Origin: Ignisphaera sp. | GTDB taxonomy: Archaea > Thermoproteota > Thermoprotei_A > Sulfolobales > Ignisphaeraceae | Assembly (NCBI GenBank): GCA_038889075.1 | Contig: JAWAHS010000014.1 | Span: 1 to 37,504, forward strand | Length of the DNA stretch: 37,504 bases | Reading direction: 5' to 3' | In this document: positions 16,225 through 37,504 of the stretch, one piece after another | How positions within the stretch are numbered: the first letter of the stretch is position 1 | How the letters are laid out: the number at the start of each line of letters is the position of its first letter | Program-made: the position numbers and the translations under genes | The notes under the pieces: model-generated | What the model saw: the letters and a program-made list of their open reading frames with translations, nothing else | What the model was told of the DNA's origin: nothing | Database searches by the model: none

Positions 16225-18150
16225 CTATTCTGAGATAAAGTTGCCATACAGCGATTGGTTATACATTCTTCTCCTGGGTATATATACACCGTCCCTAGGA
16301 TTATCATCCTGGGTATATATTATGAGCCTATGCTCATTCCATACAATTACCTCATCTCTTGGATCCCCTACTATGTTCCATACATAGACCTTCGGCCCCC
16401 ATTCACTATCGCTCCACATGTTGTATTCAAAGGGAACAACAATGTTTCCATAGAGGTCGTACAGTCCATTAGGTGCTGCAATTAATTCAGAACCGTTGCC
16501 GATCCAGTTTACCGGTACCCAGCCAAAGACCTTATTAAATGCTGCAAAGATCATCTCGCCACTGAGATCAAATACAAACTGGTTTACCCCTCCCCAAAAT
16601 GTTTGAGCCACTATTAATGGCTTCGAGACCGTGGGATCGAAGTTTGCTAACGACATTATCTGGGCGTGGCCTAGATGCCACTCCTTAATAACCTCACCCT
16701 TCTCCACGTCGATGAAGTATACACCCCCATCTTGATTCGCTATGGCTAGATACATTCTACCATTATATCTGTATGCAACGGCACTGTCACAGTGGTCATA
16801 TAGATCTATCCTCCACAAAACTCTACCATTATCATCTATAAGTGCATCACCGGCAAAAACCTCGTCCCTTCCATCATCGTCAAAGTCGTATATGAGGGGC
16901 GTATGTATAAGCTTACCGCTATAGCTCCAAAGTTCATCGAGATCCTCTGTATAGGTCCACATATTGTTGTACCGGTCCTTGAATACTATATCCCTTGCTC
17001 TACCCAGCCCTCTCAGATCCGCAAAAACTATGTGGTCTCCGAAAACCCTCTCAAAGATGGTCTCGGAACCCTCTACAAAACCTCCACCCTCTCTTGCTTT
17101 CGGTGTATCTCTACTCCTTATAGTTTTTCCACTACTACCTTCAATAATTATTAGCTTGAAATTTCTAGCGAGCACAACCTCATCTCTTCCATCACCATTG
17201 ATATCTATAACGCCTATAGGAAGCTCTGTCTGGGCTGGGAAGTTTCTTGCATCTGGTCTTCCAATTTGCCAGAGAATACTGCCATCAATATTCACTGCTG
17301 TTACACATGATATGTGTCTATATATGTTGTGGTGGTACTTCTCGCCAGTTACAACATTCTCATTCTGTACAAATATGAACTCTGGAATACCATCGCCATC
17401 GAGATCCCCTATCCTCATTATCCTTCCAGCAAAGTTCCTTAACAGTAGACTTCTATACACTGTAGCCCGGGGTATGGCAAGGGTTTTGAATGGCGATTCC
17501 CTGTGCTCTAGGGCAACATTTTTCAAAGGCTCATTTTTTACCCTCACGCCTCCTATGGATACCGTGCCATTTCCTTGACCGGTGATGTATAGCATGAGGT
17601 AGCGTGTACCCGTGGGTGTTTTGAAGAAGCTGAACACCCTCTTCCAATCGCTATACCCCGATAAGGCTATGTCACCACATCTAAATCTGCCAATACTTAT
17701 GCATGGTTTGTATCCGCATCTCCAATCGGTTCTATAGAAAGTCTCACCATTATCACCCCACATCCACTTTTCTATCCTAAGCTCAATAGGCTCCAGCACC
17801 CTATCCAGAGCCTCTACTCTCACTACAAACCCATCAACAATACCCTTCTTAGGGTTAAATCTATTGCTATAGAAGCGGTACCTAACATAAGCTTCAATGA
17901 TATAGTAGTCCTCTTCGTGAACCCTTATTAGTGGTTTATACACCAGCGACCATTTAGATTCCCTACCACCTACAATCTCAATTCCTCTACCATCCAGATA
18001 TCTTACTGTAGGCTCTAAATCACTATGCTTAATTAGAATCCAGTAGGTCAAACCATCAGAAAAATCGAGATTGTAAGCACTATCTGGATCAAATACGGGA
18101 AGCTCTACATTATGGAGATAGAGTATGTGCCTAAGGCTCACTGACACCAC
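16225..18150 (-). CDS. Rhamnogalacturonan lyase PL11-like/FG-GAP beta-propeller with N-terminal CBM4/9-like domain
   Basis: Repeated DxDGDGxxE calcium-blade motifs (GDLDGDGIPE, DINGDGRDE, DFDDDGRDE), H-x-D (DHCDS), LGHAQ; directly downstream of GH28. Confidence 0.7.
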   Translation of the reverse strand: MVSVSLRHILYLHNVELPVFDPDSAYNLDFSDGLTYWILIKHSDLEPTVRYLDGRGIEIVGGRESKWSLVYKPLIRVHEEDYYIIEAYVRYRFYSNRFNPKKGIVDGFVVRVEALDRVLEPIELRIEKWMWGDNGETFYRTDWRCGYKPCISIGRFRCGDIALSGYSDWKRVFSFFKTPTGTRYLMLYITGQGNGTVSIGGVRVKNEPLKNVALEHRESPFKTLAIPRATVYRSLLLRNFAGRIMRIGDLDGDGIPEFIFVQNENVVTGEKYHHNIYRHISCVTAVNIDGSILWQIGRPDARNFPAQTELPIGVIDINGDGRDEVVLARNFKLIIIEGSSGKTIRSRDTPKAREGGGFVEGSETIFERVFGDHIVFADLRGLGRARDIVFKDRYNNMWTYTEDLDELWSYSGKLIHTPLIYDFDDDGRDEVFAGDALIDDNGRVLWRIDLYDHCDSAVAYRYNGRMYLAIANQDGGVYFIDVEKGEVIKEWHLGHAQIMSLANFDPTVSKPLIVAQTFWGGVNQFVFDLSGEMIFAAFNKVFGWVPVNWIGNGSELIAAPNGLYDLYGNIVVPFEYNMWSDSEWGPKVYVWNIVGDPRDEVIVWNEHRLIIYTQDDNPRDGVYIPRRRMYNQSLYGNFISE

Positions 18151-18190
18151 CGAATACTATAGATGGCCTAGTTCTCTAGGTGTGCCAAGC

Positions 18191-19588
18191 CTACCCTGCT
18201 CTACTACTAAAGTCATCCAAGGTCACGCCATCTGTATTGTCAAGTACCAGTACCGGGCCCTCTAACGAAGATATCCTAATCTTTGAGAGCCTAGCGCTAG
18301 TGACATTTGAAAGTAGGATCCCCCTCCTTGCCCTAATTCTGGCGTTCTCAATTACTATATCCCTTATTGGCATCTCTGGCAATCCACTCAACCTCACTGC
18401 CTGGCCTGCACCATCACAAACTATATTATACATGTAGACTCCTCTAATAGCTGGTGTTCTTTCTGATACAGGCTCTGGTGGTAGAGGTTCGTAGAACATA
18501 TCTATGACTATAGCCTCATAGACTATGTCCCGCATCACGATGTTTCTAGCAATAACATTTTCAACAATGCCTCCACGTCCTCTAGCAGTCTTTATCCTCA
18601 CCCCTCTTTCCGTGCCGTCAAATACACAATTCTCTATAGTGGCATTTCTTACACCCCCAGACATCTCACTACCTATAACAAAACCTCCATGGCCTCTTCT
18701 CATGGTGCAGCTACTCACATAGATATTCATAGATGGTTTCCCTATTCTTCTACCCTCCTCATTCTTACCAGACTTAATCACTACACAATCATCGCCTACA
18801 TCTATGAAACACCCACGGATGTGGACATCACTCGACGAATCTACTACAATACCATCTGTATTTGGAGAGTAGTCGGGAGCCGTGATCAAGATGCTTTCTA
18901 CTGTTACATGCTGGCTGTATAGGAGGTGTACATTCCACATAGGGGAATTCTTAAATGTAACACCGCTTATCAAAACGTTCTCAGCATTGTATAGCTGGAG
19001 GAGCTGCGGTCTGAAGAATTCATGATATTGCTTACATATGTCTTCAGTAGGCTTTACACCCTTTGCTACGAGCTCTCTATATAACTTGTATCCCTCAAAG
19101 GCCCTTTTTGAAGGCCACCAAATCTGCTGCTCTTCATCAATAAAACCTCTTCCAGAGTCTACAATATTTTTCCACATCTCTTCGGATACACGAGACCTCT
19201 TTATATACCACCACTGCTGCCCCTGACCATCTACTACTCCCTCACCAATTAGTGCAACATTCCTTACATCTCTGCCAAAAATCATAGGGGAAGTCTGACA
19301 CTGGTGCTGACCCTCCCTTCTTGTTTCAATAACAGGATATCTATCGAAATCTGAGCTAAACTTTATGAAAGCATCCCGCTCCATGAACACTACAGTGTTG
19401 CTTTTTAGAAGAATTGTTGTAACTAAATATTCCCCTGGTGGAATATATACCACACCTTTTTTCTCAGAAGCTTCCTCAATGGCAGTATTAAATGCCCTTG
19501 AGCTATCCTCACCACCCTTCGAATCCGCCCCAAAATCAACTACATTAAATCTTTGTCCCATGGTATCTATTAGCCACATAGGGTTCAC
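18191..19588 (-). CDS. Glycoside hydrolase family 28 (probable cytoplasmic exo-polygalacturonase)
   Basis: All four GH28 motifs: SPNTDG, GDDC, GHGG, RIKT; no signal peptide visible. Confidence 0.95.
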   Translation of the reverse strand: MNPMWLIDTMGQRFNVVDFGADSKGGEDSSRAFNTAIEEASEKKGVVYIPPGEYLVTTILLKSNTVVFMERDAFIKFSSDFDRYPVIETRREGQHQCQTSPMIFGRDVRNVALIGEGVVDGQGQQWWYIKRSRVSEEMWKNIVDSGRGFIDEEQQIWWPSKRAFEGYKLYRELVAKGVKPTEDICKQYHEFFRPQLLQLYNAENVLISGVTFKNSPMWNVHLLYSQHVTVESILITAPDYSPNTDGIVVDSSSDVHIRGCFIDVGDDCVVIKSGKNEEGRRIGKPSMNIYVSSCTMRRGHGGFVIGSEMSGGVRNATIENCVFDGTERGVRIKTARGRGGIVENVIARNIVMRDIVYEAIVIDMFYEPLPPEPVSERTPAIRGVYMYNIVCDGAGQAVRLSGLPEMPIRDIVIENARIRARRGILLSNVTSARLSKIRISSLEGPVLVLDNTDGVTLDDFSSRAG

Positions 19589-20949: not shown

Positions 20950-23169
20950 CTATTTTCTTTTTATGAACCATCCTATTGCTATTCCTATTATTAGTAGTGC
21001 TATTGCTAGTGCTGTTGTTGTTGTCCATTCTGTTACTGTCTCTGTTTTTGTTGCTGTTGTTGTTGATACTGCTGTAGATGTTACTACTGCTGTTGATGTT
21101 ACTGTTGCCGTTTCTGTTCTAGTAACTGTAACTGTTACAGCACCAGGCACAGGAGTAGGTGTTGGGGTAGGCTTTGGAGTCGGGGTAGGTGTAGGAGATG
21201 GAGTAGGCGAAGGAGTAGGTGTTGGCGTTGGAGTCGGGGTAGGTGTAGGAGATGGTGTTGGTTTTGGTGTTGGTGTGGGAGATGGTGTAGGGGTAGGCGC
21301 AGGTGCTAGTATTGCTGTAACGTCTTTCCAGAATCTGTCATAGGATATCAGTAGTCCACCCATTTCAGTGGGTTTAACCCACCATGGTGTTCGTGGTGTT
21401 TCACCTTTGAGTTTGTTTGCAATACCAAAGAATACTGGGAAGTTTTGGTCGGTGAACGAGTTCGCAGGCCACCACCATGGATTGGTTGCATTAGGCCATC
21501 CTATCCATCGATCTAATCTAATCTGGTACCATGAACCAGCTCTTGAATATACTATGTATGGTAGATCTCTATATAGAATTTCCTGTATCTTGCTTGCAGC
21601 CTTTATCTTCACGTCTTCAAACGGTGATGTCAGCATGTTTATCAGTTTATCCAATTCGCTATTGTTGTACCAAGCATAGTTGTTATATGGAATGTTGATG
21701 CTATGTAGCCTTATATAGTATGTGCTCCATGGAGATGCCCAGTTAGCAGTTATGGTCTCCGATGTATCAGCTACATCCCACTGAGTACCGCCAGTTTGAA
21801 TAATCTGTTGTATTGTTGAAATCGATTGGCGCTGCACATTTACCTCAAAACCTATCTTCTCTAGATTGGCCTTAAATAACTCAGCAAGCATTTCCCTTAC
21901 CGCAGCACCCGATCTTACAAGATAGGTTATACTGAGCTTTGTACCATCTGGAAGCTCTCTTATACCATCACCATTTCTATCGATTATACCGGCCTGCTCT
22001 AGTATCTCCTTCGCCTTCTCAAGATTTGTAGTCAGTACACAGCCTTCGTTACCCCAGTACATTTTACACAGTGTTCTATTGATGTAGCTACTCCATGGAG
22101 GTTCATCAGGTAGCCAAGCCATGGAGGATTTTATCCCTGCACCTGACAGTGCTTTTTCTATGTGTTCATCCCATGGAAATGCATACACCATGGCAAGCCT
22201 AACTTCTCTATACTTTCCTACAACTGGGCTTCTCATATTGAATACCATGAAGTTACCGGTACCTGTTCTATAGTATGGTGGGTTTTTGATATCCCATGTA
22301 TATATTCCGTCCCTAAAGTAATTGTATATATCTGGCATGCCTCCATTCCCATCCCAGTCAAGTTCATTGTTTTGAAGTGCTATAACCCTTGCTTGATCAC
22401 TTGGATAGAACAGTAAGATAAGGTACTTTGGTCCCGGTAATCCAAAGATGTCCCTACCCCACCAATTATCAATACGTTCATAGTAGATCTGACCAGCAGC
22501 TTCATCAAATGATACCAGTCTGTATGGCCCTGAGACAACCATCTTGTCAGGCTCGTTGTTTCTCCACGACTTTACTTGTCCAGATGCGTTTACAGCTTCA
22601 AATACATGTTTGGGATATACCCTTAGTGTAATCCAACAATCTATGAAACTTATATACCCTACTCTACCAAGCTGGTAGGAAGTTCTATTCATCCTTAGCT
22701 CAACTGTTCTATCGTCAATCCTTTTAATTAATTCAACAACATCAGGTCTGCATCCTGATCCAGGTCCTCTACCAGCATATAGACCAAGCCGTATTGTATA
22801 TATCAAGTCATCAGCTGTTATAGGCTTACCATCACTCCACTTTGCTTGAGACCTTATATATATCCTAACGGTATATGGATCAATCCACTCATATTTTTCA
22901 GCCAAAATAGGTACAAATCCTTTTACACCATAGCTTTCCCCCTCTATGAATAGAGTTGGATAGAGAATATTAAGAGGACTAACTGTTGAACCTGCATATT
23001 CATTCCAGTTAAATGCTGTCCTACCCCTACTAAATTTCAGGGTATCTTCTGGTCGATATTGAGCCTGCAGTACTGGTAGTAAGCTTAGAGCAAACATTAA
23101 TACAATTATGATTAGCTCAACTAACTTTTTCACCTGATTTCCCCAAGAAGTTCTTAGAGATAATACCAA
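20950..23169 (-). CDS. oppA: ABC transporter substrate-binding protein, family 5 (Opp/Dpp-type, probably oligosaccharide-binding)
   Basis: Signal peptide; [21 protein letters not shown] and DRNGDGIRE motifs; PT linker, Thr-rich stalk, C-terminal TM. Confidence 0.92.
21150..21300 (-). repeat. Pro-Thr linker low-complexity repeat
   Basis: (PT/PS/PK)n; exact 28-bp duplicate TTGGAGTCGGGGTAGGTGTAGGAGATGG at 21174-21201 and 21228-21255. Confidence 0.85.
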
Positions 23170-23261
23170 GCTATATAAATTTTAATGCCAGCCTTTAACA
23201 GGTTTAATTTCCAAATCCACGTTATTTAAAGATATCAGCATACTACAATAAAAAGGCATAT

Positions 23262-24074
23262 CTATTCTATATCGCTCCATTTACGATAGATACTTGGTAT
23301 GCTATCGATCAGCATTTTGGTGTATTTATGTTTTGGATTTCTTACTACCTCTTCGGGAGAACCTCCATCAACTATCTCACCTTTGTACATCACGAGGATT
23401 CTATCTGATATTGCGTACGCTAGGTTCATATCATGAGTTATGAAGAGTACTGATGTGTTATATGTTTCTCTTAGATTATAAAACAACTTCATTATATCTC
23501 CCCTCAGTGAAGCATCTATCATTGAGACAGGTTCGTCTGCTACTACAAGCCTAGGCTTTATTATGAAGCATCTTGCTATCAGTATCCTTTGTCTTTGCCC
23601 ACCTGAAAGCTGATGAGGATACTTACCTAGAATTTCTTCTGGATTAAGTCCAACATGCCTTAGGCTTTCAACAACCATTCTACGTCCATGCGCATCATTC
23701 GGATCTACTCCTATAAGTTTTAGAGCTTGGTATAGTATTCTGTCAACTTTATAAGATGGGTTAAAAGTTGAGTACGGGTCTTGAAATACTGGCTGGACAT
23801 TTCTCCAGTATTCAATCAACTCTTTAGAATTTCGAATATCCCTCCATATATCTTTCCCACCAAATTTTATCGTTCCCGATGTTGGGGGTATTAATCTTAG
23901 AATTATTTTTGCTATTGTTGATTTTCCGGAACCGGATTCACCAACAAGGGCTAGTATCTCTTTTTTCATAATGTCAAAGGACACATTATTGACCGCTACA
24001 GTATGCATCTTCCTAATAAGTCCCGTCTCGTAAACCTTTGTTAGGTTTTTTACCTCTAGTAATACATCTCCCAT
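23262..24074 (-). CDS. oppF: ABC transporter ATP-binding protein (OppF/DppF)
   Basis: GESGSGKST, LSGGQRQR, ADEPVSMID. Confidence 0.93.
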   Translation of the reverse strand: MGDVLLEVKNLTKVYETGLIRKMHTVAVNNVSFDIMKKEILALVGESGSGKSTIAKIILRLIPPTSGTIKFGGKDIWRDIRNSKELIEYWRNVQPVFQDPYSTFNPSYKVDRILYQALKLIGVDPNDAHGRRMVVESLRHVGLNPEEILGKYPHQLSGGQRQRILIARCFIIKPRLVVADEPVSMIDASLRGDIMKLFYNLRETYNTSVLFITHDMNLAYAISDRILVMYKGEIVDGGSPEEVVRNPKHKYTKMLIDSIPSIYRKWSDIE

Positions 24075-24086
24075 ATAAACACCTGG

Positions 24087-25109
24087 CTACTTCTTTACAT
24101 AAAGCCAGCAAGCAACAAAACGATTACTCTCAATATGTATCATTGGCGGTTCTTCTCTTCTACACACATTCATAGCATATGGACATCTTGGGTGGAATCT
24201 ACATCCAGTTGGTGGTTCTGCTAAATTTGGCGGAGCTCCAGCTACTGATGTAAATTCCTTCTTCATTCTGCTACCTCCATAGTATAGTACCTCTGCTACA
24301 TCTGGTATTGATCTGATGAGTAGTGAAGAATATGGATGGTACGGCTTCTCTATGAATTCTTCAGTGGGTGCCTCCTCGACTATCTTTCCTGCATACATGA
24401 CATTAAATCTGGTAGCTATCTGTCTTGCAGCCCCAATTTCATGTGTTATAAATATTATGCTACCTACATAACCCTGTTTTTTTAAGTCTAGTATGGTCTT
24501 TAGCACTATTTTCTGAGTCGAAACATCTAGTGCTGATGTAGGCTCATCAGCTATCATTATGCTAGGGCCTAGCATTGCAACAAGGCCTAGCACTACCCTC
24601 TGTCTCATGCCACCGCTTAACTCAAATGGATATCTATCAACCACGTCACCGGGTAAACCAATGGATTGAAAGATCTTTGATGCACGCTCTACTACCTTCT
24701 CCTCTTCAACATTCTCGAAGTGAGACTTCATTATATCCATGATTATTCTCCTAATCCTCAGCGTGGGTGTGAGTGCGTTCATAGCAAACTGAGGTACAAG
24801 TGCCATTTCTACACCCCATACATACCTTCTTAGCATATCCCTTGAGAGTTTGTGTAGCTCTAATTCCTTACCATTCTTTGCACGTAGAATAACACTACCA
24901 CTTATGTACTGTAACGGTGGAGAGAAATCCGCTAAAATAGCCCTTGCCAATGTTGATTTGCCACAGCCACTCTCACCAATAATCCCTACAATCTCATTAC
25001 TTCTAACCGTTAAATTCACATTGTCAACCGCTTTTACATAAATCTTCTTACCAGCCAATATCTGGATATAGTATGCCTTTAGGTTTTCTATCCTCAGAAC
25101 TTCGCTCAA
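24087..25109 (-). CDS. oppD: ABC transporter ATP-binding protein (OppD/DppD)
   Basis: GESGCGKST, LSGGMRQR, HPYS and GCRFHPRCP..C..VACW tail. Confidence 0.93.
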   Translation of the reverse strand: MSEVLRIENLKAYYIQILAGKKIYVKAVDNVNLTVRSNEIVGIIGESGCGKSTLARAILADFSPPLQYISGSVILRAKNGKELELHKLSRDMLRRYVWGVEMALVPQFAMNALTPTLRIRRIIMDIMKSHFENVEEEKVVERASKIFQSIGLPGDVVDRYPFELSGGMRQRVVLGLVAMLGPSIMIADEPTSALDVSTQKIVLKTILDLKKQGYVGSIIFITHEIGAARQIATRFNVMYAGKIVEEAPTEEFIEKPYHPYSSLLIRSIPDVAEVLYYGGSRMKKEFTSVAGAPPNLAEPPTGCRFHPRCPYAMNVCRREEPPMIHIESNRFVACWLYVKK

Positions 25110-25118
25110 ACCCCATCC

Positions 25119-26012
25119 CTAGGCCTTTCTTAGTCTAGGATTGAATATCTCATCAATAGCTGTCGAAATTAGTAGCATAGATATGGCCACCAGCATTATG
25201 ATGAGACCTGGTGGAACAAACCACCACCACGCACCTCTCCTTATACCTCCATAAGTATTTGACTGAGAGAACATTATACCTAGTGAATATCCCTTAGATG
25301 GCTGTAGCCCTAGCAAACTCAGTGTTGCTTCACCAACCATACCATTGTCTATGTGGCCTGCAAAGAAAATCACTATATATGCAGCAACGGCTGGTAACAT
25401 ATCTTCCAAAACTATCCTTATAGTGCTATAGCCTGCAACCCTAGACATGTTTATGAAGTCCTCCTCTCTCAAGCTTAGCAATCTTGCTCTTAAACCCCTA
25501 GCAAAACCAGCCCAGCCTGTACCACCCAGCACCAATGCTATAACTTCATAACTTTTAACAGGTGCATAGAAGGCTATTATAAGTGCGAGGAGTGTTGACG
25601 GTACTGATAGCAGAAAGCTGATTATGGCGGTAATAATATCATCGACTATCCCTCCAAAAGCTACGGAAAGAGCTGCAGCTATGACTCCTATTAATGTCGC
25701 TATTGCCGCTGTTAGAAATCCTACATATAGAGATGTCCTTGTACCAATCATTAATGCGGCCAGCACGTCTCGACCAAGAGCATCTGTACCCAGTGGATAT
25801 TCGGAGCTTGGTGGCATAAGTGGTCTGCCAGCAGTGCTTAGAGGATCTTTTGGATAGAATATGGGTCCTATTAAACCGAATAGTGCTATAGCCAAGATTA
25901 TTACAAACCCTATTAGAAATCTAGGAGCTCTGAGTAGCAATTGCAATGATTCAGGTATTTTTACTTTCTTGATAGTCATACTCATCATATATTTCACCAA
26001 ATGGGTATCCAC
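25119..26012 (-). CDS. oppC: ABC transporter permease (OppC/DppC)
   Basis: PLGTDALGRDV, WWWFVPPG, IFNPRLR. Confidence 0.92.
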   Translation of the reverse strand: MDTHLVKYMMSMTIKKVKIPESLQLLLRAPRFLIGFVIILAIALFGLIGPIFYPKDPLSTAGRPLMPPSSEYPLGTDALGRDVLAALMIGTRTSLYVGFLTAAIATLIGVIAAALSVAFGGIVDDIITAIISFLLSVPSTLLALIIAFYAPVKSYEVIALVLGGTGWAGFARGLRARLLSLREEDFINMSRVAGYSTIRIVLEDMLPAVAAYIVIFFAGHIDNGMVGEATLSLLGLQPSKGYSLGIMFSQSNTYGGIRRGAWWWFVPPGLIIMLVAISMLLISTAIDEIFNPRLRKA

Positions 26013-26015
26013 CTA

Positions 26016-27053
26016 CTATTGTTTAACATATCCCAATCTTACACGCGGATCTATGATCATGTGGACAAGATCTGAAATAAATATCGCTAGATAGACTGTA
26101 GCAACAAGTATTACAAATATACCTTGCAGTAACATGTAATCGTTATTTGATACAGCCTGGGCCATGTAGTACCCCATACCAGGGTAGCTAAATAGAGCTT
26201 CTACTAGTGCGGCTCCCGCAACAGTTCTGCCTAACCTTATGGAGAGCCCAACTATTTGAGGCATTACAGCATTCCTAAAGGCATATTTTCTTACCACCTT
26301 CTCTCGGAGCCCTATGTAATCCCCGAATACCGTGTAATCAGATTTCAATTCATATATAATCAAATTTCTCATTGTTAGTACCTGTCCACATAAATATGGG
26401 ACGGTAATGGCCGTGAATGGTAAAATATAGTGTTTTAACACATTTAGTGCATAGTCGATACTCAGTGATGGAGGTACTGTAGGATCATAAGCCCTACCTG
26501 ACGGTAGTAGCCTTAGGTATACAGCAAACCCATAGATGAGTAGCATTGCAAGCCAGTATGATGGTATTTGAGCTATAGTTGACGAAAATACTACCGAGAA
26601 TTTCTCGAAAATTGAACCACGTTTAAAACCTGTTCTCGCTCCCCATAGGTTTCCTAGATACCATCCGATAAGAGATGAAGGAATGAGCAAGAATAGTGTC
26701 CAGGGTAAAGATCCCATAATTACGTCTAGCACTCTACTTGGATAGAGCCATATCGAGGTTCCTAGATCACCCCTGAATGCTTTAACTAGAAAATCTACAT
26801 ACTGTTCCCACAAAGGTTTTCCAAACCCAAACTCTTCAATCATCGCTTTATATTGCTTCGGTACAAGATCTGGATTTGTTAAGTATCCATACTGTTCTAC
26901 TACCTGCTCTACATATATCGCTACAGGGTTAGATGGTATTAGTCTAGGAAGAGCGAAGAGAACTGATAATGTAATTAAATACATTATGCCGAGAGTGGCT
27001 AACCTCTTAAGCATATAAAATAAGAACGGTGCAATACTAATTTTAGTCATCAA
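26016..27053 (-). CDS. oppB: ABC transporter permease (OppB/DppB)
   Basis: PLWEQY, GDLGTS, VEALFSYPGMG, IDPRVR. Confidence 0.92.
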   Translation of the reverse strand: MMTKISIAPFLFYMLKRLATLGIMYLITLSVLFALPRLIPSNPVAIYVEQVVEQYGYLTNPDLVPKQYKAMIEEFGFGKPLWEQYVDFLVKAFRGDLGTSIWLYPSRVLDVIMGSLPWTLFLLIPSSLIGWYLGNLWGARTGFKRGSIFEKFSVVFSSTIAQIPSYWLAMLLIYGFAVYLRLLPSGRAYDPTVPPSLSIDYALNVLKHYILPFTAITVPYLCGQVLTMRNLIIYELKSDYTVFGDYIGLREKVVRKYAFRNAVMPQIVGLSIRLGRTVAGAALVEALFSYPGMGYYMAQAVSNNDYMLLQGIFVILVATVYLAIFISDLVHMIIDPRVRLGYVKQ

Positions 27054-32280: not shown

Positions 32281-32588
32281 TCCTAAAAACATCAAGAAGA
32301 AAACAGCCCATCTATGCATATCATCCGTTCTCCAATCCTACCCTAGGTTATGGTGCTTACAAATTCCTTTTAACGAGAATAAAATTAATGTAATGATATA
32401 TGTAGTGGTGGTATTTATAGAGATACAGCTATACCAATTGTATACCTCCATCATTTCTCTGGTTTTTTCTTGGATGTGAAATGATTTGGCAATGTTTATA
32501 GGACGACTCAAAGTCTACAGCAGTCTTACGACTACGATTATGTTAATAGCTTTTAGTTTTAGTAATTAGTAATACAGAATCTCTCGAG

Positions 32589-33281
32589 GTGTCTTTGGCT
32601 TTGTCTACAGTTTCTATACTTATTAAAAGGGTTTTTAGAGGTGGTAGGGTAGAATATTTTGTTGATAGCATTGCAGTAGAGTTTGAGGTAGAGATTTATG
32701 TTAATGATGTTAGAGAGGCTGTTCTGGAGACCTCTCCAACAATGCTAGAGGAACTTGGAATAGGATATGCAAAAGCCCATGGATACAGCATCAGTAGCAT
32801 ATATATTGACAATAATAGAATTAGCATACATGCTAATCTAGATTCTACCAGATCTAGAAGACCAGTAGATGGTGTAAGGATAACAGCTGAAGGTATCTTT
32901 AGGGCTGTAGGAAATACCTTTTCTATGGCAAAGCTATTTAGAGAAACTGGATGTTTCCATGTAGCAGCCCTAGCAACCGTCAACGGAGATGTTGTAGAAT
33001 TTGTGGAGGATATATCAAGACACTGCGCACTGTACAAATTAATGGGAAGCATTATTAAAAAGAATATCGAGACGTATGACAAAGTTGTTGTTATGTCCTC
33101 TAGAGCAGCATCTCGTTTAATAGAATCCATAGCGATACTCGGAATTCCGATAGCATTATTTCGAGGAGCACCAACAAATAGAGCTATTGAAAAAGCAAAA
33201 GAACTTAACATAACATTGGTTGCACATATACGGGAAGACAAATTCAATGTCTATACATATAATCATAGATTGCTATTCTAA
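32589..33281 (+). CDS. fdhD: Formate dehydrogenase accessory sulfurtransferase FdhD family
   Basis: SPTMLEELGIG, LFRETGCFHVAAL, EDISRHCALYKLMG and GAPT..AIEKA motifs. Confidence 0.85.
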   Translation: MSLALSTVSILIKRVFRGGRVEYFVDSIAVEFEVEIYVNDVREAVLETSPTMLEELGIGYAKAHGYSISSIYIDNNRISIHANLDSTRSRRPVDGVRITAEGIFRAVGNTFSMAKLFRETGCFHVAALATVNGDVVEFVEDISRHCALYKLMGSIIKKNIETYDKVVVMSSRAASRLIESIAILGIPIALFRGAPTNRAIEKAKELNITLVAHIREDKFNVYTYNHRLLF

Positions 33282-33558
33282 TGCTCCTATCTAATGGATG
33301 ATACGGATTAGGTTTATACAATTTAGAGAAAGGTTAGAATCATAGAAGGGTTGACTATATACACATCCATTTCGGTACTAAATTGCTCCTAAAGTAGGTC
33401 TATAGCTATGAATTGTTTGCAGAGCTGTATACTGCTATCACCATTGTATCTACAGTAGCCACTGTTATGAGAACCCTAGATGGTGCTACCATGTGATATA
33501 GAAATACATACCGCAGATCAATTCAATGGGTATATGCTCGTAAAAAAGTGTTTAGAGT

Positions 33559-34731
33559 TTAGACTTTGGGTAATCCAAACATTAGAAGTGCTCCAATAAG
33601 CTCTATTATAGCCGCGGTTATTATTAGTGTTCCTAGACCTGCTGCAAGTAGTGCTCCTCCTACAAATCCTCCAACTATAGCTGCCACAGATATCGCCATG
33701 AATATAGCTGTAATTGCAACCGATATGAGTTCGGGTTTAACACTTCTAGATGCAACATAGCTTGTTCCAGGCATTCCAACAACCCCGAATACTGTTACTA
33801 GCCAGAAGAGTATGGTGTATGCCCACATACTTCCCAGCGCAGGATACATTATAAATGTTATGATGGCCGATGCGAGTAGGGCCATTATCAGCGTTCTTTT
33901 ACCACCCAATTTATCTACAACGGGACCCCATATATAGGTTCCAACACCAAGCATTATGGAGGCGACACCCATAGCGAGGCTGTAGATCTCAGGTGGCGCT
34001 TTGTAAATCATTTCCAAGACTATCGATAGCGATGGGTACATGAAGTTCCATCCTATTAGATATATACAGATTGCAACAGCTGTCATGAATACTCCTCTAG
34101 CTTTTAAAGCTGTAGCTATATCTGAAGCCTTCATAGCTGGTAGTTGAACTCTAGGAGCTCTAACAGGAAGCATAAGGAGTAGTGCTACAAGTGCTAAAGC
34201 TGCTGCAAGGAAATACATTGCTTGGTAGCTTCCTCCCAATGCTGTAAATATCATGCCTGCAAAAATTTGTGAAACACCCATTCCGAGCATCATGGAGCCC
34301 GCTAGTATTCCTAGGATAGTGCCCCTGATTTTCTCAGGTGCTATGAGGGCTGCTATAGCCATGTATAGAGATGTGAAGGCAAATGTAATCCCAGCTATAG
34401 TTCTGTATATAGCTAATTCAATCCAAGAATGCGCCAAACCGAGGAGTGCATTAAAGATTACACCGAGTACAAGTCCTATTAATATTATCTCCTTCCTCCT
34501 ACCAGTCTTATCAGCATATATGCCTACAGGTAGTAGAAGTATCAAACCGGGAATTGATGGAAGTGCCATAATCATTGCAGTGGCTATGGCCATGGGAGCG
34601 CCGAGTCTTGCAGCATGGCCAGGTATCAAGGGTCCGTATATTCCGAAACCCGCACCTGCTAGAAGAGCTGAAAGTGCCAAGAATATTACCGGTGCTAGTG
34701 ATGCTTTAGGCTGCTGCGTAGGTACAGCCAT
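33559..34731 (-). CDS. MFS transporter
   Basis: About 12 TM; motif A GIYADKTGRRK and GPVVDKLGGKR. Confidence 0.9.
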   Translation of the reverse strand: MAVPTQQPKASLAPVIFLALSALLAGAGFGIYGPLIPGHAARLGAPMAIATAMIMALPSIPGLILLLPVGIYADKTGRRKEIILIGLVLGVIFNALLGLAHSWIELAIYRTIAGITFAFTSLYMAIAALIAPEKIRGTILGILAGSMMLGMGVSQIFAGMIFTALGGSYQAMYFLAAALALVALLLMLPVRAPRVQLPAMKASDIATALKARGVFMTAVAICIYLIGWNFMYPSLSIVLEMIYKAPPEIYSLAMGVASIMLGVGTYIWGPVVDKLGGKRTLIMALLASAIITFIMYPALGSMWAYTILFWLVTVFGVVGMPGTSYVASRSVKPELISVAITAIFMAISVAAIVGGFVGGALLAAGLGTLIITAAIIELIGALLMFGLPKV

Positions 34732-34807
34732 AACTCACACCACCATCTATAAATAGAGTACGACACTTATAAATTTATATTCATATTTGAATGGAGGTAC
34801 AACGATG

Positions 34808-36097
34808 CTAGTACTCTCCACATCTACTTACAGCTTCCACTGCCGCTCTCAAATTCTCTGGTTTCGTTTCATCTGGTATACCACCGACACCCGAACCTGA
34901 GAATATGAATACACCGAATTCCTTCATCTCCTTTAGAAGATTGCAAACCTCATTAAAGACTCTCTCGGGTGTTCCATGTATTAGATGTGCTACAGAGATT
35001 CCTCCCATCAATACTACGTGGCCACCGAGAACCTCACCAGCCTTTCTTAAATTGGTTCTCTCAAAGTATGCAATGATGCTTCCTTTTGGAGCCTCGAGAA
35101 TGGTTTCAAGATGTGGGGTGTGGTCTCCTTCAAAGAATATCCACGATTTTAAACCAGATCTATGGAATTCCTCTACAAGTTTTCTTAGATATGGCCAGTA
35201 GAATTCGCTATAGAGCTTCGGTGGCAGCATCTCATTCAAATGCAGAGGTATGAAAACAACGCCTACCTCGGTTCCAAACAGACTGCTTCTGATGTTGGCT
35301 GGTGGCATGGGTTTTAAACCAAGTTTTATAAGGTAAGGTAGTAGTGCTTCGGAAGCTGCCTTGAATTCCGCTGGTACTCTATATATGTCGGTTAAAGCAT
35401 AACTATGAGGGCATCTGAGATTGTCGGCTATATAATCTGCAGGGACAGTTGAAAATGAAAAGGGTAGAATGGGGTAACCCATATTCTTTAACTCATTAAA
35501 AAGTCTCAGATTTACTGCATTGAATTTTGCTGCTTCGAGACCAATCTTTATGAGTGTAGCTATGTAATGAGGTGTTCCGGGCATGCTCAGATTTCTGTAC
35601 ACCCTTGGAATGATCTTGTTTACTAAGAAGTATTCGGGGTCTCTTGCAAGCTCTGCATACTCGTCTACGGTCATGTATGGAGCGTCGACATATGCTATCT
35701 GTGCAGGTTTATTAACATCCAGTTCTCTACCAGGCCACTTAGTATACTTATCTCCTAGAATATCGTGTAGAGGACCTGTAAAGGATGGTATTACCGTTAG
35801 TAGTTCCGGGAATTTCTCAGCAAATATTATGGGCATTCCTAGAGGTCCTGGAATACCTGCACCAGGGGCAACGAATCCAGCAGCATCGAAATTAAACTCC
35901 TTGAAAACCTTTACAACACAGTTGTAGAAGATTTCATAGTTAAATGCATAGTCGTGGTATGTAACCTTGCAGTATCTTGCAGGAAAGTAGTGAAATGCGG
36001 GAAGGAATGGAACTCTATCGGGTCTCTTACCTGTTAGAGCATTTTCTATCCTATTCAATCGTTTGTTGAAAGTGTTATCGAAGGAATCCATAGACAT
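34808..36097 (-). CDS. URO-D/MtaA-CmuA superfamily protein (probable corrinoid-dependent methyltransferase)
   Basis: PDRVP, FIPLH, EFYWPYL, FFEGD, MGGI and ETKPENLRA motifs. Confidence 0.85.
   Translation of the reverse strand: MSMDSFDNTFNKRLNRIENALTGKRPDRVPFLPAFHYFPARYCKVTYHDYAFNYEIFYNCVVKVFKEFNFDAAGFVAPGAGIPGPLGMPIIFAEKFPELLTVIPSFTGPLHDILGDKYTKWPGRELDVNKPAQIAYVDAPYMTVDEYAELARDPEYFLVNKIIPRVYRNLSMPGTPHYIATLIKIGLEAAKFNAVNLRLFNELKNMGYPILPFSFSTVPADYIADNLRCPHSYALTDIYRVPAEFKAASEALLPYLIKLGLKPMPPANIRSSLFGTEVGVVFIPLHLNEMLPPKLYSEFYWPYLRKLVEEFHRSGLKSWIFFEGDHTPHLETILEAPKGSIIAYFERTNLRKAGEVLGGHVVLMGGISVAHLIHGTPERVFNEVCNLLKEMKEFGVFIFSGSGVGGIPDETKPENLRAAVEAVSRCGEY
35185..35254. repeat. 70-bp exact repeat, copy 1 (copy 2 at 36496-36565)
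   Basis: TTAGATATGGCCAGTAGAATTCGCTATAGAGCTTCGGTGGCAGCATCTCATTCAAATGCAGAGGTATGAA identical in both paralogues. Confidence 0.95.
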
Positions 36098-36118
36098 GGA
36101 AAAAACCGTATTGAATTC

Positions 36119-37402
36119 CTAGTATACACCATACTTTAGAACGGCATTGATATAGGTTCTTACGTTAGCTACGGGAGTAGCTTTGGGTAATTCATTTACT
36201 CCTAGAGATAGGATGAATCCTCCTTCAGGTTTTATCTGGCTAAGGAGATCCTTGATATATTCTTCGATTTTCTCAGGAGTTCCTCCAGCAACTAGAGATG
36301 GGGAAACCCCACCCATAACGGCTGTATGTCCCTTTAGCTTCTCCCAAACCTTTACAAAGTTTTTCGGTCTTTCAAACCATGCTATACCCCAGCCCTTTGG
36401 AAGCTCTAGTATTGTATCCACATGTGGTGAATGGTCACCCTCAAAGAATACAAAGCCTTTATAGCCTTTTCCAACTAGTGTCTCGATAACCTTCTTTAGA
36501 TATGGCCAGTAGAATTCGCTATAGAGCTTCGGTGGCAGCATCTCATTCAAATGCAGAGGTATGAAGAAGAACGTCAGTGGTGGAATTGGCGGTATTGCTG
36601 AAGCAACCTTTAAGATGGGTTCTATAAGAGCTTCACAAGCAGCTTTAAAGTCGTCTGGATACCTCCTCATATCGAGCATAGCTCCCGTTGGATGCCTTAG
36701 GAAATCACCTATAACATCTGCAGCAGTGTAGGCATTCGTCATTGGGAATAGAGGATTGCCCATTTTAACCACCGCTGTAAATACCTGCATTGTGAATGCT
36801 GATACCTGCTGCATAGTCATTCCAACCTTGATCCATGCACCATTCCATTTAGAGGATCCTGGTGTTCCAAGGCCTGGGCAAACCCTTGGAAGTACCGTAT
36901 TGTGCATGAATTCAATTGGATTTTCAATAAGTTTTCTATACTCCTTAGGTTCCATAAACTCGCCTCCTCTAAATTGTGGATGCATATCCTCCCTAAGCTC
37001 CCTACCGGGCCACTGGCTCCACCTATCCTTTAAGATATCATGCACAGGTCCCGTAAGAAATCTAATGGTATTTGAAAACTCTGGGAAATCGGCAAATGAG
37101 AGTGCGAGTGCAAATCCTTCAAGCATCATTGGTACAAATACTATACCCCAGTCGCTCGGAAAATCATGCAGAAATCTGAGTACAGCATCTCTAACTTTAT
37201 CGCTTAGACTATAGGATAGCTCATACCATGTGATTCCCGTATAGCTACAGAGAAAGTCTCCTCCAACACCAGCGACAGGAATTCTATCAGGAACCTTAAG
37301 CTCTACAGCTTTTATAAACCTCTCGGCCTTCTCTTTGGCAACAACATCAGGTTCCTTCTCATGCCTTTCAATCCAAACATCTATTTGTTCTTTTTGTTTC
37401 AT
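36119..37402 (-). CDS. URO-D/MtaA-CmuA superfamily protein, tandem paralogue
   Basis: PDRIP, FIPLH, EFYWPYL, FFEGD, GTPEKI and GGFILS motifs; SD AGGTGA. Confidence 0.85.
   Translation of the reverse strand: MKQKEQIDVWIERHEKEPDVVAKEKAERFIKAVELKVPDRIPVAGVGGDFLCSYTGITWYELSYSLSDKVRDAVLRFLHDFPSDWGIVFVPMMLEGFALALSFADFPEFSNTIRFLTGPVHDILKDRWSQWPGRELREDMHPQFRGGEFMEPKEYRKLIENPIEFMHNTVLPRVCPGLGTPGSSKWNGAWIKVGMTMQQVSAFTMQVFTAVVKMGNPLFPMTNAYTAADVIGDFLRHPTGAMLDMRRYPDDFKAACEALIEPILKVASAIPPIPPLTFFFIPLHLNEMLPPKLYSEFYWPYLKKVIETLVGKGYKGFVFFEGDHSPHVDTILELPKGWGIAWFERPKNFVKVWEKLKGHTAVMGGVSPSLVAGGTPEKIEEYIKDLLSQIKPEGGFILSLGVNELPKATPVANVRTYINAVLKYGVY
36496..36565. repeat. 70-bp exact repeat, copy 2
   Basis: Identical to 35185-35254. 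Confidence 0.95.
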
Positions 37403-37411
37403 GGTTTTATT

Positions 37412-37504
37412 TCACCTTTTTTTCTCCTCTATCCATTTTAGCATTGTTTTTACTCCATGTGCTGCATCGTTTGTCCATGCATCTGCTTCTATGTATTGGC
37501 ATGC
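37412..37504 (-). CDS. 3' end of a cobalamin-binding (corrinoid) protein, MtbC/MttC-like (partial)
   Basis: Frame ACQYIEADAWTNDAAHGVKTMLKWIEEKKR* matches the B12-binding domain C-terminal pattern (GADAWxxDAxxGV); stop overlaps the SD of the URO-D-like gene. Confidence 0.7.
   Translation of the reverse strand, partial: ACQYIEADAWTNDAAHGVKTMLKWIEEKKR

Follow-up and report, generated by a model that had tools for sequence, protein, structure and literature searches.

The end of this stretch of Ignisphaera DNA raises the question of what reaction is served by an operon in which two URO-D-fold proteins are encoded between a corrinoid-protein gene and a gene for an MFS transporter. The whole stretch analysed, 37,504 nt on contig C14, is called the window here. 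A possible model is the Mto system described for Methermicoccus shengliensis and Archaeoglobus fulgidus, in which MtoB is methyltransferase I (MT1), MtoC the corrinoid protein, MtoA an MtrH-like MT2 and MtoD the activase, together with an MFS transporter (Kurth 2021, PMC8630106; Welte 2021, PMC8359953). In the account of M. shengliensis the genes run MtoC-MtoB1-MtoB2, with MFS genes adjacent (PMC8630106).

Layout of the operon and the split corrinoid gene

On the minus strand the genes follow the order corrinoid protein-MT1-MT1-MFS (Table 1). Nine nucleotides separate the corrinoid stop codon from the ATG of MT1_A, 21 nt lie between MT1_A and MT1_B, and the MFS gene begins 76 nt downstream of MT1_B. 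The two URO-D paralogues of about 430 residues and the MFS gene noted in a preliminary description of the locus are borne out by both reading frames and Pfam matches. The transporter is the presumed importer of the substrate or exporter of the product; its best NCBIfam match, to an aromatic acid/H+ symporter family, is weak, at 39 bits where the cut-off is 418.

Table 1. Positions of the features discussed, numbered along the window.
Feature	Position	Strand	Remarks
Corrinoid-protein gene, 3' end (MtoC-like)	37412..37504	-	30 codons (37415-37504) and TGA (37412-37414); truncated at contig end
MT1_A, 427-aa URO-D-fold protein, predicted methyltransferase I of MtoB/CdmB type	36119..37402	-	Pfam URO-D and PDB CdmB match
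MT1_B, 429-aa predicted MT1-type paralogue	34808..36097	-	Pfam URO-D and PDB CdmB match
MFS transporter, 390 aa	33559..34731	-	Pfam MFS_1, 1e-34
84-nt direct repeat, copy 1, inside MT1_A	36482..36565	.	holds 70-nt exact run
84-nt direct repeat, copy 2, inside MT1_B	35171..35254	.	same repeat as copy 1
Pectin locus: GH28 and RGL11-like protein	16225-19588
ABC transporter of the pectin locus	20950-27053

The final 93 nt, previously read as the C-terminus of a B12-binding protein, do encode such an end: the 30 residues are 100% identical to the last 30 of a complete corrinoid protein (Pfam B12-binding_2 and B12-binding) encoded at the paralogous C5 locus, and the DNA is identical too, over all 93 nt. 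The assembly break sits within an exact repeat common to the window and the C5 locus, and unitigs of three DNA runs continue beyond the window by 144-151 nt. An open-ended ORF of 141 aa, with which contig C18 ends, most probably supplies the missing N-terminus. It has B12-binding_2 and B12-binding domains and the DxHxxG motif and shares 83% identity with the C5 protein; about 44 codons fall in the gap between this ORF and the tail in the window. Synteny gives the C18-C14 join no support, since in none of the relatives is the corrinoid gene preceded by the PhnS2/U2/T2-like ABC transporter genes of C18. With the join that we infer, the B12-binding motif sought upstream is present, and a cognate corrinoid protein would be encoded beside MT1_A by a gene split over the ends of C18 and C14.

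Family placement of the two methyltransferases

MT1_A and MT1_B are 37% identical to each other and match Pfam URO-D (PF01208) with E-values of 1e-20 and 9e-24 (74 and 85 bits; gathering threshold 23.9). Searching PDB sequences returned a sole match, CdmB (9rui), a biochemically shown MT1 (PMC13222342), which aligns over the full length of both proteins, with residues 23-427 of MT1_A (E 9e-70) and residues 9-429 of MT1_B (E 6e-60). By hand count of the alignment MT1_A is about 36% identical to CdmB; it is 35% identical to the representative of an Archaeoglobi cluster. Relatives 80-82% identical to it are in MAGs labelled Ignisphaera sp. and in Nezhaarchaeota WYZ-LMO8, and the nearest named relative of MT1_B is from Baldrarchaeia (67-68%).

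The URO-D match might suggest that the paralogues are HemE, the uroporphyrinogen decarboxylases of tetrapyrrole synthesis, as might a Foldseek search with the AF2 model of MT1_A (pLDDT 92.3), whose best matches are UROD structures with TM 0.5-0.6, next to MtaA (4ay7, TM 0.57). The PDB copy searched was one without 9rui, and the matches in it were to UROD and MtaA only, with 11-15% identity for the UROD structures; the TIM-barrel fold of the URO-D superfamily is thereby confirmed. On TIGR01464, the hemE equivalog with its cut-off of 302.95, the two proteins reach just 22.2 and 19.9 bits, and across archaeal loci MT1 genes of this kind lie directly behind a corrinoid gene in 34 of 41 cases. Grouping with HemE, the outcome that would have told against a methyl-transfer role, is not what is seen, and a HemE function can be regarded as extremely improbable.

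A division of labour between the paralogues had also been proposed, in which one is the MT1 and the other, an MtaA-like MT2, would hand the methyl group on to a thiol or another acceptor. MtaA likewise belongs to the URO-D superfamily, and MtaA/CmuA models do match, at E-values of 1e-7 to 5e-12, but weakly and over the C-terminal part only. Over the MtaA/MtbA/CmuA models as a whole both proteins score 22-45 bits against cut-offs of 235-600, with 31-45 bits against 235-244 for MtaA/MtbA, whereas both align end to end with the MT1 CdmB, N-terminal extensions included. A single gene of this kind suffices at the C5 locus and at the closest Ignisphaera-labelled loci, and the neighbouring MT2 candidate in relatives is MtrH. 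The zinc motif HxC is absent from both paralogues in alignments that include the MtaA-like paralogue of this genome and four further URO-D paralogues. An MT1/MT2 pair is thus very doubtful, and sequence comparison places both proteins in the MtoB/CdmB group, as putative MT1 enzymes acting on the substrate side.

The preliminary description had HxC appear as HLN. The absence of HxC stands, but the mapping does not: the HxC(G) position aligns to F319-F320-E321(G322), with two alignments agreeing within one residue, and H284-L285-N286 lies 35 residues upstream of it, where the preceding beta-strand ends. HLN is a conserved motif of the MT1 family.

Within that family, a 50-row tree places MT1_A and MT1_B in a 40-row clade of moderate support (85/94) that also holds an Archaeoglobus sp. 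protein and an IMG entry named 'methoxylated aromatic compound--corrinoid protein Co-methyltransferase'. They fall in two separate subclades, A and B respectively, that are sisters of the Archaeoglobus/MtoB-named subclade and not part of it. The MtoB side of this tree stands on the Archaeoglobus sp. protein and the IMG name, its rows having come from a homologue search with the Archaeoglobi-cluster representative; the MtoB proteins of M. shengliensis and A. fulgidus are absent under their own names. Residues D233, H284 and E321 are retained in all 40 of the A, B and MtoB-like rows, MT1_B included, whereas the corresponding residues are A/W/Q in three CdmB-like rows and S/W/Q in CdmB itself.

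This signature bears on a further alternative, Cdm-type haloalkane dehalogenation, in which Co(I) would receive the methyl group of chloromethane, or of a similar haloalkane, through the MT1s. CdmB, the one homologue with a solved structure, matches both proteins over their full length, it too has no zinc motif, and homologues of it are reported from archaea (PMC13222342). Yet MT1_A and MT1_B fall outside the CdmB-like clade (support 100/100; its row P0213 is confirmed as CdmB-like at 634 bits), and their identity to CdmB is below that of the set of at least 40% described in PMC13222342. The gene order is not cdmB-C-A, a gaseous substrate needs no MFS transporter, and an MtqA-like pterin-binding MT2 is not nearby, the sole Pterin_bind match in the genome being weak (43 bits) and on another contig (C12). 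The names Ignisphaera, Nezhaarchae, Bathyarchae, Thermoprote, Desulfurococc and Tepidanaerobacter do not occur in the supplements of PMC13222342, so its tree gives no placement of the two proteins. Haloalkane dehalogenation is accordingly improbable, and D233/H284/E321 versus S(A)/W/Q offers a cheap, testable marker that may separate ether-cleaving from haloalkane-type MT1s.

Methyl route, substrate and occurrence

Candidate genes for the remaining steps are found elsewhere in the genome, which is 99.6% complete. McrA was not detected in it, in agreement with the earlier view of a non-methanogenic organism, and in the absence of Mcr no methane would be made. A search for C1 genes did not find FTHFS but did find CdhC, Mch, Mer and a single MtrH-family gene (PF02007). 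The latter reaches 353 bits on NF002142, under the mtrH equivalog cut-off, and adjoins the mer gene in divergent orientation (Mer equivalog, 450 bits); it is free-standing, outside the operon and not part of an Mtr complex. Two RamA/RACo-type activases of 620 and 643 aa are also encoded, so that the activator looked for is present in the genome, but not in the operon. Four other corrinoid modules occur in the genome, and the C5 locus combines its corrinoid gene with a single MT1 gene.

Synteny in other genomes connects these genes to the operon. A gene for MtrH lies within 7 kb in eight of the 41 archaeal loci and one for RamA is adjacent in 14, as it is in 13 of 32 bacterial loci; the clusters L032, L036 and L047 are complete. 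In L025-L027, L032 and L036 the gene pair for corrinoid protein and MT1 is followed by one for an MFS homologue, at 59-76% identity. The MT1 proteins of L028 (Nezhaarchaeota WYZ-LMO8) and L033 (SJ3.Bin21) are 80% and 76% identical to MT1_A, and both MAGs are among those listed by Welte et al. with mtoABC homologues (PMC8359953). More distant relatives of the MT1s, 44-50% identical, are encoded beside corrinoid and RamA genes in thermophilic Bacillota. From this synteny the MT2 for the operon is likely the product of the single MtrH-family gene, and use of a RamA-type activase may be inferred in the same way.

Gene content, activases and C1 pathway together uphold the original idea of a corrinoid-dependent methyl-transfer operon with a transporter, and an O-demethylase-like role appears to be its best reading. 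With a probability of roughly 0.6, the operon encodes the substrate-side half of an Mto-type corrinoid system, for which methoxylated aromatics would be the probable substrate and H4MPT the methyl acceptor. In the proposed route, the MFS protein would carry across the membrane either the methylated substrate, which is probably anionic or polar, or the demethylated product. MT1_A and MT1_B, both lacking the zinc motif and perhaps differing in specificity, would then each demethylate a methyl ether, with a methoxylated aromatic as the most likely one, and load the methyl group onto the Co(I) of the corrinoid protein that they share, whose gene immediately precedes theirs. The methyl-Co(III) protein would be unloaded by the free-standing MtrH-family protein, acting like MtoA, to give methyl-H4MPT, which could either be oxidised by the adjacently encoded Mer followed by Mch, or serve CODH/ACS in the condensation to acetyl-CoA. 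Any Co(II) formed would be re-reduced by one of the two activases.

The same machinery could act on another class of substrate, for instance methyl ethers that are not aromatic, plant-polysaccharide sugars bearing O-methyl groups or a hot-spring metabolite, with the methyl group still going to H4MPT. Subclades A and B are distinct from the MtoB-named one, and substrate range shifts among close relatives of MT1, CdmB being described as not converting methoxylated aromatics (PMC13222342). The genome also has pectin-degrading genes, from which a plant-derived O-methyl substrate had been suggested. That part of the earlier proposal of uptake and demethylation is weak, because the pectin locus lies at least 14 kb from the operon with unrelated genes in between and so gives no specific link. 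No sequence feature indicates a sugar, and the characterised relatives with the H284-type signature are all aryl methyl ether demethylases in the literature. Another substrate class is therefore unlikely, if not negligibly so, and the Mto-type reading with methoxylated aromatics is preferred.

The paralogues also share the 84-nt direct repeat, which spans the strand and motif region including HLN. A third identical copy sits in the C5 MT1 gene, and the 70-nt unitig stands at about 2-4 times the flanking depth in three independent DNA runs. A tentative extension, speculative on present sequence data, would be that MT1_A and MT1_B stand for two clades of enzymes, sister to MtoB and each with its own range of substrates, that with their four other corrinoid modules Ignisphaera-type archaea are near-boiling methyl-scavenging organisms of the acetyl-CoA pathway, a lifestyle not reported before in that group, and that the 70-nt tract encodes the surface that all the MT1s present to the shared corrinoid protein.

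Hot-spring metagenomes from several studies contain the stretch in almost identical form. In one metatranscriptome, assembled contigs of a single RNA run cover 33572-37504 at about 99% identity and have no coverage of 32300-33571, although three DNA runs cover that part; the contig end at 33572, near the MFS stop codon, is a hint from this one study of a transcript end. RNA depths are contig word depths, which cannot rank genes. Given its recurrence in the metagenomes of several studies and its presence in one metatranscriptome, the trait looks active in nature.

Comparison with known systems

The system itself has already been described in other archaea, and the locus reveals no new kind of system. 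The methylcobamide:CoM methyltransferases MtaA and MtbA, which are MT2 enzymes, share the URO-D fold, but MT1_A and MT1_B lack their HxC motif, are about 90 residues longer, score far under their model cut-offs and occur in a host without Mcr. The bacterial O-demethylase MT1s MtvB (Moorella) and OdmB/VdmB (Acetobacterium) are likewise MT1s of the URO-D superfamily and work by the same MT1/corrinoid/MT2/activase logic, but there the methyl group is handed to H4F. Some of these enzymes bind zinc, as cited in PMC13222342, and such MT1s in Bathyarchaeia have been called 'bacterial-type MT1' (Yu et al. 2023, PMC10989822). CdmB, from the chloromethane dehalogenase CdmBCA of Acetobacterium dehalogenans, resembles the two proteins in length (429 aa), fold, N-terminal extensions, missing zinc site and corrinoid dependence, but differs in clade and in the three signature residues; its system is described with the order MT1-CP-MT2, an MtqA-like MT2 that binds H4F and no transporter (PMC13222342).

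The Mto system is the closest parallel. It shares the URO-D-fold MT1, the tandem paralogues (MtoB1/MtoB2), the corrinoid gene directly upstream and the adjacent MFS gene, and its gene order in M. shengliensis (PMC8630106) and in A. fulgidus AF_0006-13 (PMC8359953) matches the order here. An MtrH-family MT2 delivering to H4MPT and a RamA-type activase would be further points in common, on the operon's side by inference. A. fulgidus is a non-methanogen too, and Welte et al. name Nezhaarchaeota and Verstraetearchaeota MAGs in which close homologues of MT1_A are found (PMC8359953). The differences are that the MtrH and RamA genes lie away from the operon, that MT1_A and MT1_B fall in two sister subclades of the MtoB-named one, and that the host is an Ignisphaera-type hot-spring archaeon. 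The literature searched held no report of Mto-type genes in Ignisphaera. Uncultured Ignisphaera were described by Berghuis et al. (2019, PMC6421429) as carrying the Wood-Ljungdahl pathway and an MtrH without a clear role, for which the operon offers a concrete one, the unloading of methyl groups captured by Mto-type MT1s. The reach of corrinoid-dependent demethylation would thereby extend to very hot habitats.

Operon layout and assignment of the URO-D proteins

The genome (1.95 Mb, 25 contigs, 99.6% complete) contributes the whole of contig C14 to the window, and the operon occupies its right end. The table gives its genes together with other genes of the window and further methyl-transfer loci of the genome. 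Thymidylate synthase, GATase-like, NTP-transferase and FdhD genes separate the operon from the pectin-type locus. The pairing of a HEPN gene with a minimal nucleotidyltransferase gene is the usual toxin-antitoxin-like arrangement.

Genes of the operon, of the remaining window and of further loci in the genome
Contig	Position	Strand	Feature	Remark
C14	37412-37504	minus	Corrinoid gene, 3' end	Last 30 codons and stop; gene exits contig
C14	36119-37402	minus	MT1_A, 427-aa URO-D-family ORF	Starts 9 nt past corrinoid stop
C14	34808-36097	minus	MT1_B, 429-aa URO-D-family ORF	21 nt beyond MT1_A
C14	33559-34731	minus	MFS_1 transporter, 390 aa	76 nt beyond MT1_B
C14	16225-27053		Pectin-type locus	RGL11-like, GH28 polygalacturonase-like, GFO/IDH/MocA oxidoreductase, five-gene oligopeptide-type ABC transporter
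C14	8294-13176		Pyr_redox_2/4Fe-4S protein, zinc alcohol dehydrogenase, aldehyde:ferredoxin oxidoreductase	Adjoin second MFS transporter
C14	6964-8136		Second MFS transporter	
C14	4830-5526		HEPN-domain gene and minimal nucleotidyltransferase gene	The two genes overlap
C18	7471-11286 (of locus L003)		PhnS2/PhnU2/PhnT2-like ABC transporter	Just before corrinoid fragment, same strand; below equivalog cut-offs
C1	244000-260900 (L006, L012)		Corrinoid gene with a full-length MtmB homologue on either side	MtmB homologues without in-frame stop; 337-aa MtaA-like gene nearby, HxC intact
C1	283000-298000 (L005)		Corrinoid gene between two shorter URO-D paralogues (400 aa with HxC; 362 aa)	Beside aldehyde dehydrogenase
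C2	293000-308000 (L007)		Corrinoid gene, 365-aa URO-D gene, MFS gene	
C4	31000-46000 (L008)		MttB homologue (410 bits, under Pyl-type cut-off), corrinoid gene, amino-acid permease	

The Pfam match covers only the C-terminal halves of MT1_A and MT1_B, and identity as MtaA/CmuA, MtbA or HemE is rejected by scores of 20-45 bits against NCBIfam cut-offs of 235-600. The only PDB sequence match for each protein is CdmB (9rui, 429 aa), aligned end to end (E 9e-70 for MT1_A, 6e-60 for MT1_B). According to its description (PMC13222342), the chloromethane system of Acetobacterium dehalogenans has CdmB as its substrate-side methyltransferase (MT1); the protein is a URO-D-fold TIM barrel with extensions and no zinc, and it is inactive on methoxylated aromatics. 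It is presented there as kin of the O-demethylases MtvB, OdmB and VdmB, with archaeal MtoB (31%) the closest. Both proteins match this MT1 over their full length, so by sequence both are assigned to the MT1 type, in place of the MT1/MT2 pair proposed in the preliminary description. A confident AlphaFold2 model of MT1_A (pLDDT 92.3, pTM 0.91) resembles UROD and MtaA structures, with 11-15% sequence identity to them, in a structure library without 9rui.

The HLN of MT1_A (H284-L285-N286) had been equated with the MtaA zinc motif HxC. HxC or variants of it are carried by this genome's MtaA-like paralogue and by four further URO-D paralogues, and its position aligns with F319-F320-E321 (G322) of MT1_A, one residue off in a second alignment. 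In the predicted structure these residues lie at the end of strand 315-320, and HLN ends the preceding strand, 278-283. HLN is a family motif and not the zinc motif.

Closest to MT1_A, with 80-82% identity, are proteins from Nezhaarchaeota WYZ-LMO8 and from MAGs that bear the label Ignisphaera sp., followed by those of Bathyarchaeia MAGs (74-78%), Methanomethylicota SJ3.Bin21 (76%) and thermophilic Bacillota (44-50%). MT1_B has few close relatives: the first is 71% identical and the next, in Baldrarchaeia, 68%, after which identity drops to about 50%. A tree was built from 50 rows, our own selection among the homologues found plus six outgroup representatives. Its ingroup (support 100/99) has two parts: 3 rows form a CdmB-like clade (100/100) and the other 40 a second clade (85/94); the CdmB cluster is represented by P0213 (634 bits to 9rui). 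The larger clade comprises an A subclade (18 rows, including MT1_A and its C5 paralogue), a B subclade (12 rows, including MT1_B) and a subclade of MtoB-named, Archaeoglobus and Methanomicrobiales proteins (10 rows), in which MtoB is represented, in place of the characterised sequences, by an Archaeoglobus sp. protein and by one listed in IMG as 'methoxylated aromatic compound--corrinoid protein Co-methyltransferase'.

All 40 rows that make up the A, B and MtoB-like subclades retain H284, D233 and E321, as do 96/110, 89/110 and 101/110 more distant representatives, respectively. At the same positions, the CdmB-like clade shows W, A and Q in its three rows, and CdmB itself has W, S and Q. Because CdmB is proposed to be a hydrophobic, non-catalytic scaffold, the retained polar triad may be read as a sign of ether-cleaving chemistry.

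The interrupted corrinoid gene and its paralogues

The 30 corrinoid residues of the window, and all 93 nt, match at 100% the 3' end of a full-length corrinoid gene on C5, whose product has two Pfam domains, B12-binding_2 and B12-binding, as well as a DxHxxG motif. This match bears out the earlier reading of the contig end as a B12-binding C-terminus. By tblastn the genome holds six corrinoid genes. The window's is the sole fragment without an N-terminus, and the sole one without a C-terminus is a 141-aa ORF exiting the end of C18, with both B12 domains and the DxHxxG expected upstream. Judged from sequence, the two fragments would form one gene with about 44 codons absent between them, a join that receives no support from synteny in relatives. 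C18 ends in ~180 nt that are almost identical to C5, and the 93 nt of the window are fully identical to it, so the assembly broke inside a two-copy repeat. In agreement with this, three independent DNA runs contain unitigs that reach 144-151 nt beyond the end of the window, at ~1.5-1.9x the neighbouring depth. In relatives, the Phn-like transporter of C18 is not a conserved neighbour of the module.

Window 36119-37504 and C5 51575-53629 (locus L004) share long runs of exactly identical DNA interspersed with diverged sequence, in the corrinoid gene as well as in the MT1 gene; the MT1 proteins are 69% identical overall. Such a mosaic points to gene conversion between these loci, and it accounts for the contig breaks. 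Five of the six corrinoid paralogues (those of C5, C1, C2 and C4, and the end of C18) are ~46% identical overall, with a ~30-residue Rossmann-domain block that is almost invariant and nearly identical in DNA too.

An exact 70-nt DNA run is common to MT1_A (within 36482-36565), MT1_B (within 35171-35254) and the C5 MT1 gene (L004:7573-8856), despite a protein identity of only 37% between MT1_A and MT1_B. It forms a separate unitig at ~2-4x depth in three independent metagenomes and is therefore not an artefact of the MAG. Tandem paralogues of Baldrarchaeum (locus L036) are identical over the same block at 69/69 nt, and bacterial paralogues with identical peptides match at only 51-55/69 nt. The run resembles a tract of small-scale gene conversion that has recurred across the HLN strand.

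Gene neighbourhoods, occurrence and expression

Among 73 related loci, 41 archaeal and 32 bacterial, a corrinoid gene lies directly upstream of MT1 in 34/41 archaeal loci; MtrH is found within 7 kb in 8, RamA in 14, at least two MT1s in 7 and an MFS homologue in 6. The bacterial loci have the upstream corrinoid gene in 13/32 (12 others are without any upstream DNA), RamA in 13, an MFS homologue in 5 and MtrH in none. Complete clusters occur in L032 (MtrH-CP-MT1-MFS-MT1-MT1-RamA, CP being the corrinoid protein), L036 (CP-MT1-MFS-MT1_B-like-MtrH-RamA-MtrH) and L047. Loci L028 and L033 come from MAGs that appear among those listed with mtoABC homologues by Welte et al. (PMC8359953).

Among 121 genomes sampled from the order, MT1 homologues (E <= 1e-40) are found in 10/12 other genomes of the genus vs 1/108 elsewhere. 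Of 17 genomes from the genus, 16 have MtrH, 16 have RamA and 14 have CdhC. Two genus-mates are without CdhC, and with n=2 the pattern is anecdotal: one has an MT1 homologue broken by two stops, and the other has none at E <= 1e-40. In the first, G004, a one-contig genome (~1.9 Mb), the MT1 homologue (70% identical) has one in-frame TGA and one TAG, CdhC was not found, the single RamA match holds a stop and MtrH is intact. This may reflect module decay where ACS was lost, a weak reading because single-stop RamA matches are also seen in several CdhC-bearing genomes.

Near-identical DNA (at least half of sampled words) is present in 16 listed runs, nearly all hot-spring metagenomes, with rows from 11 studies; three rows may be the source of the window DNA. 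Contigs of one metatranscriptome span 33572-37504 and 61 nt beyond at ~99% identity and lack 32300-33571, a stretch that three DNA runs do cover. That RNA coverage stops where DNA runs continue argues for transcription of the operon over DNA carry-over, on assembled contigs of one run.

Remaining pathway and comparison with Mto systems

McrA was not found in the genome, in line with the apparently non-methanogenic host of the preliminary description. Two RamA/RACo activases, the activator to be sought, are encoded away from the operon. Of the Wood-Ljungdahl and folate/H4MPT genes, CdhC, Mch, Mer and an MtrH-family gene are present and FTHFS was not found. The MtrH-family gene is the only one in the genome; it passes the family model, fails the mtrH equivalog and is divergent from the Mer equivalog. 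The sole Pterin_bind match is weak.

In MAGs of Ignisphaera, Berghuis et al. (PMC6421429) had already observed WLP genes together with an MtrH that was left unexplained; no link of Ignisphaera to Mto genes was found in the literature searched. In the methoxydotrophic Mto system, as shown by Kurth et al. (PMC8630106), H4MPT is methylated by the MtrH-like methyl-unloading MT2 MtoA, and the operon runs MtoC-MtoB1-MtoB2 with MtoA, MtoD and MFS transporters; A. fulgidus AF_0006-13 is similar (PMC8359953). The window operon is a probable Mto-type module, and its host is an Ignisphaera-type archaeon that lacks Mcr. Systems of this kind are already known, and the members found here are new; unlike in the operon of Kurth et al., the putative MT2 and activase genes sit elsewhere in the genome.
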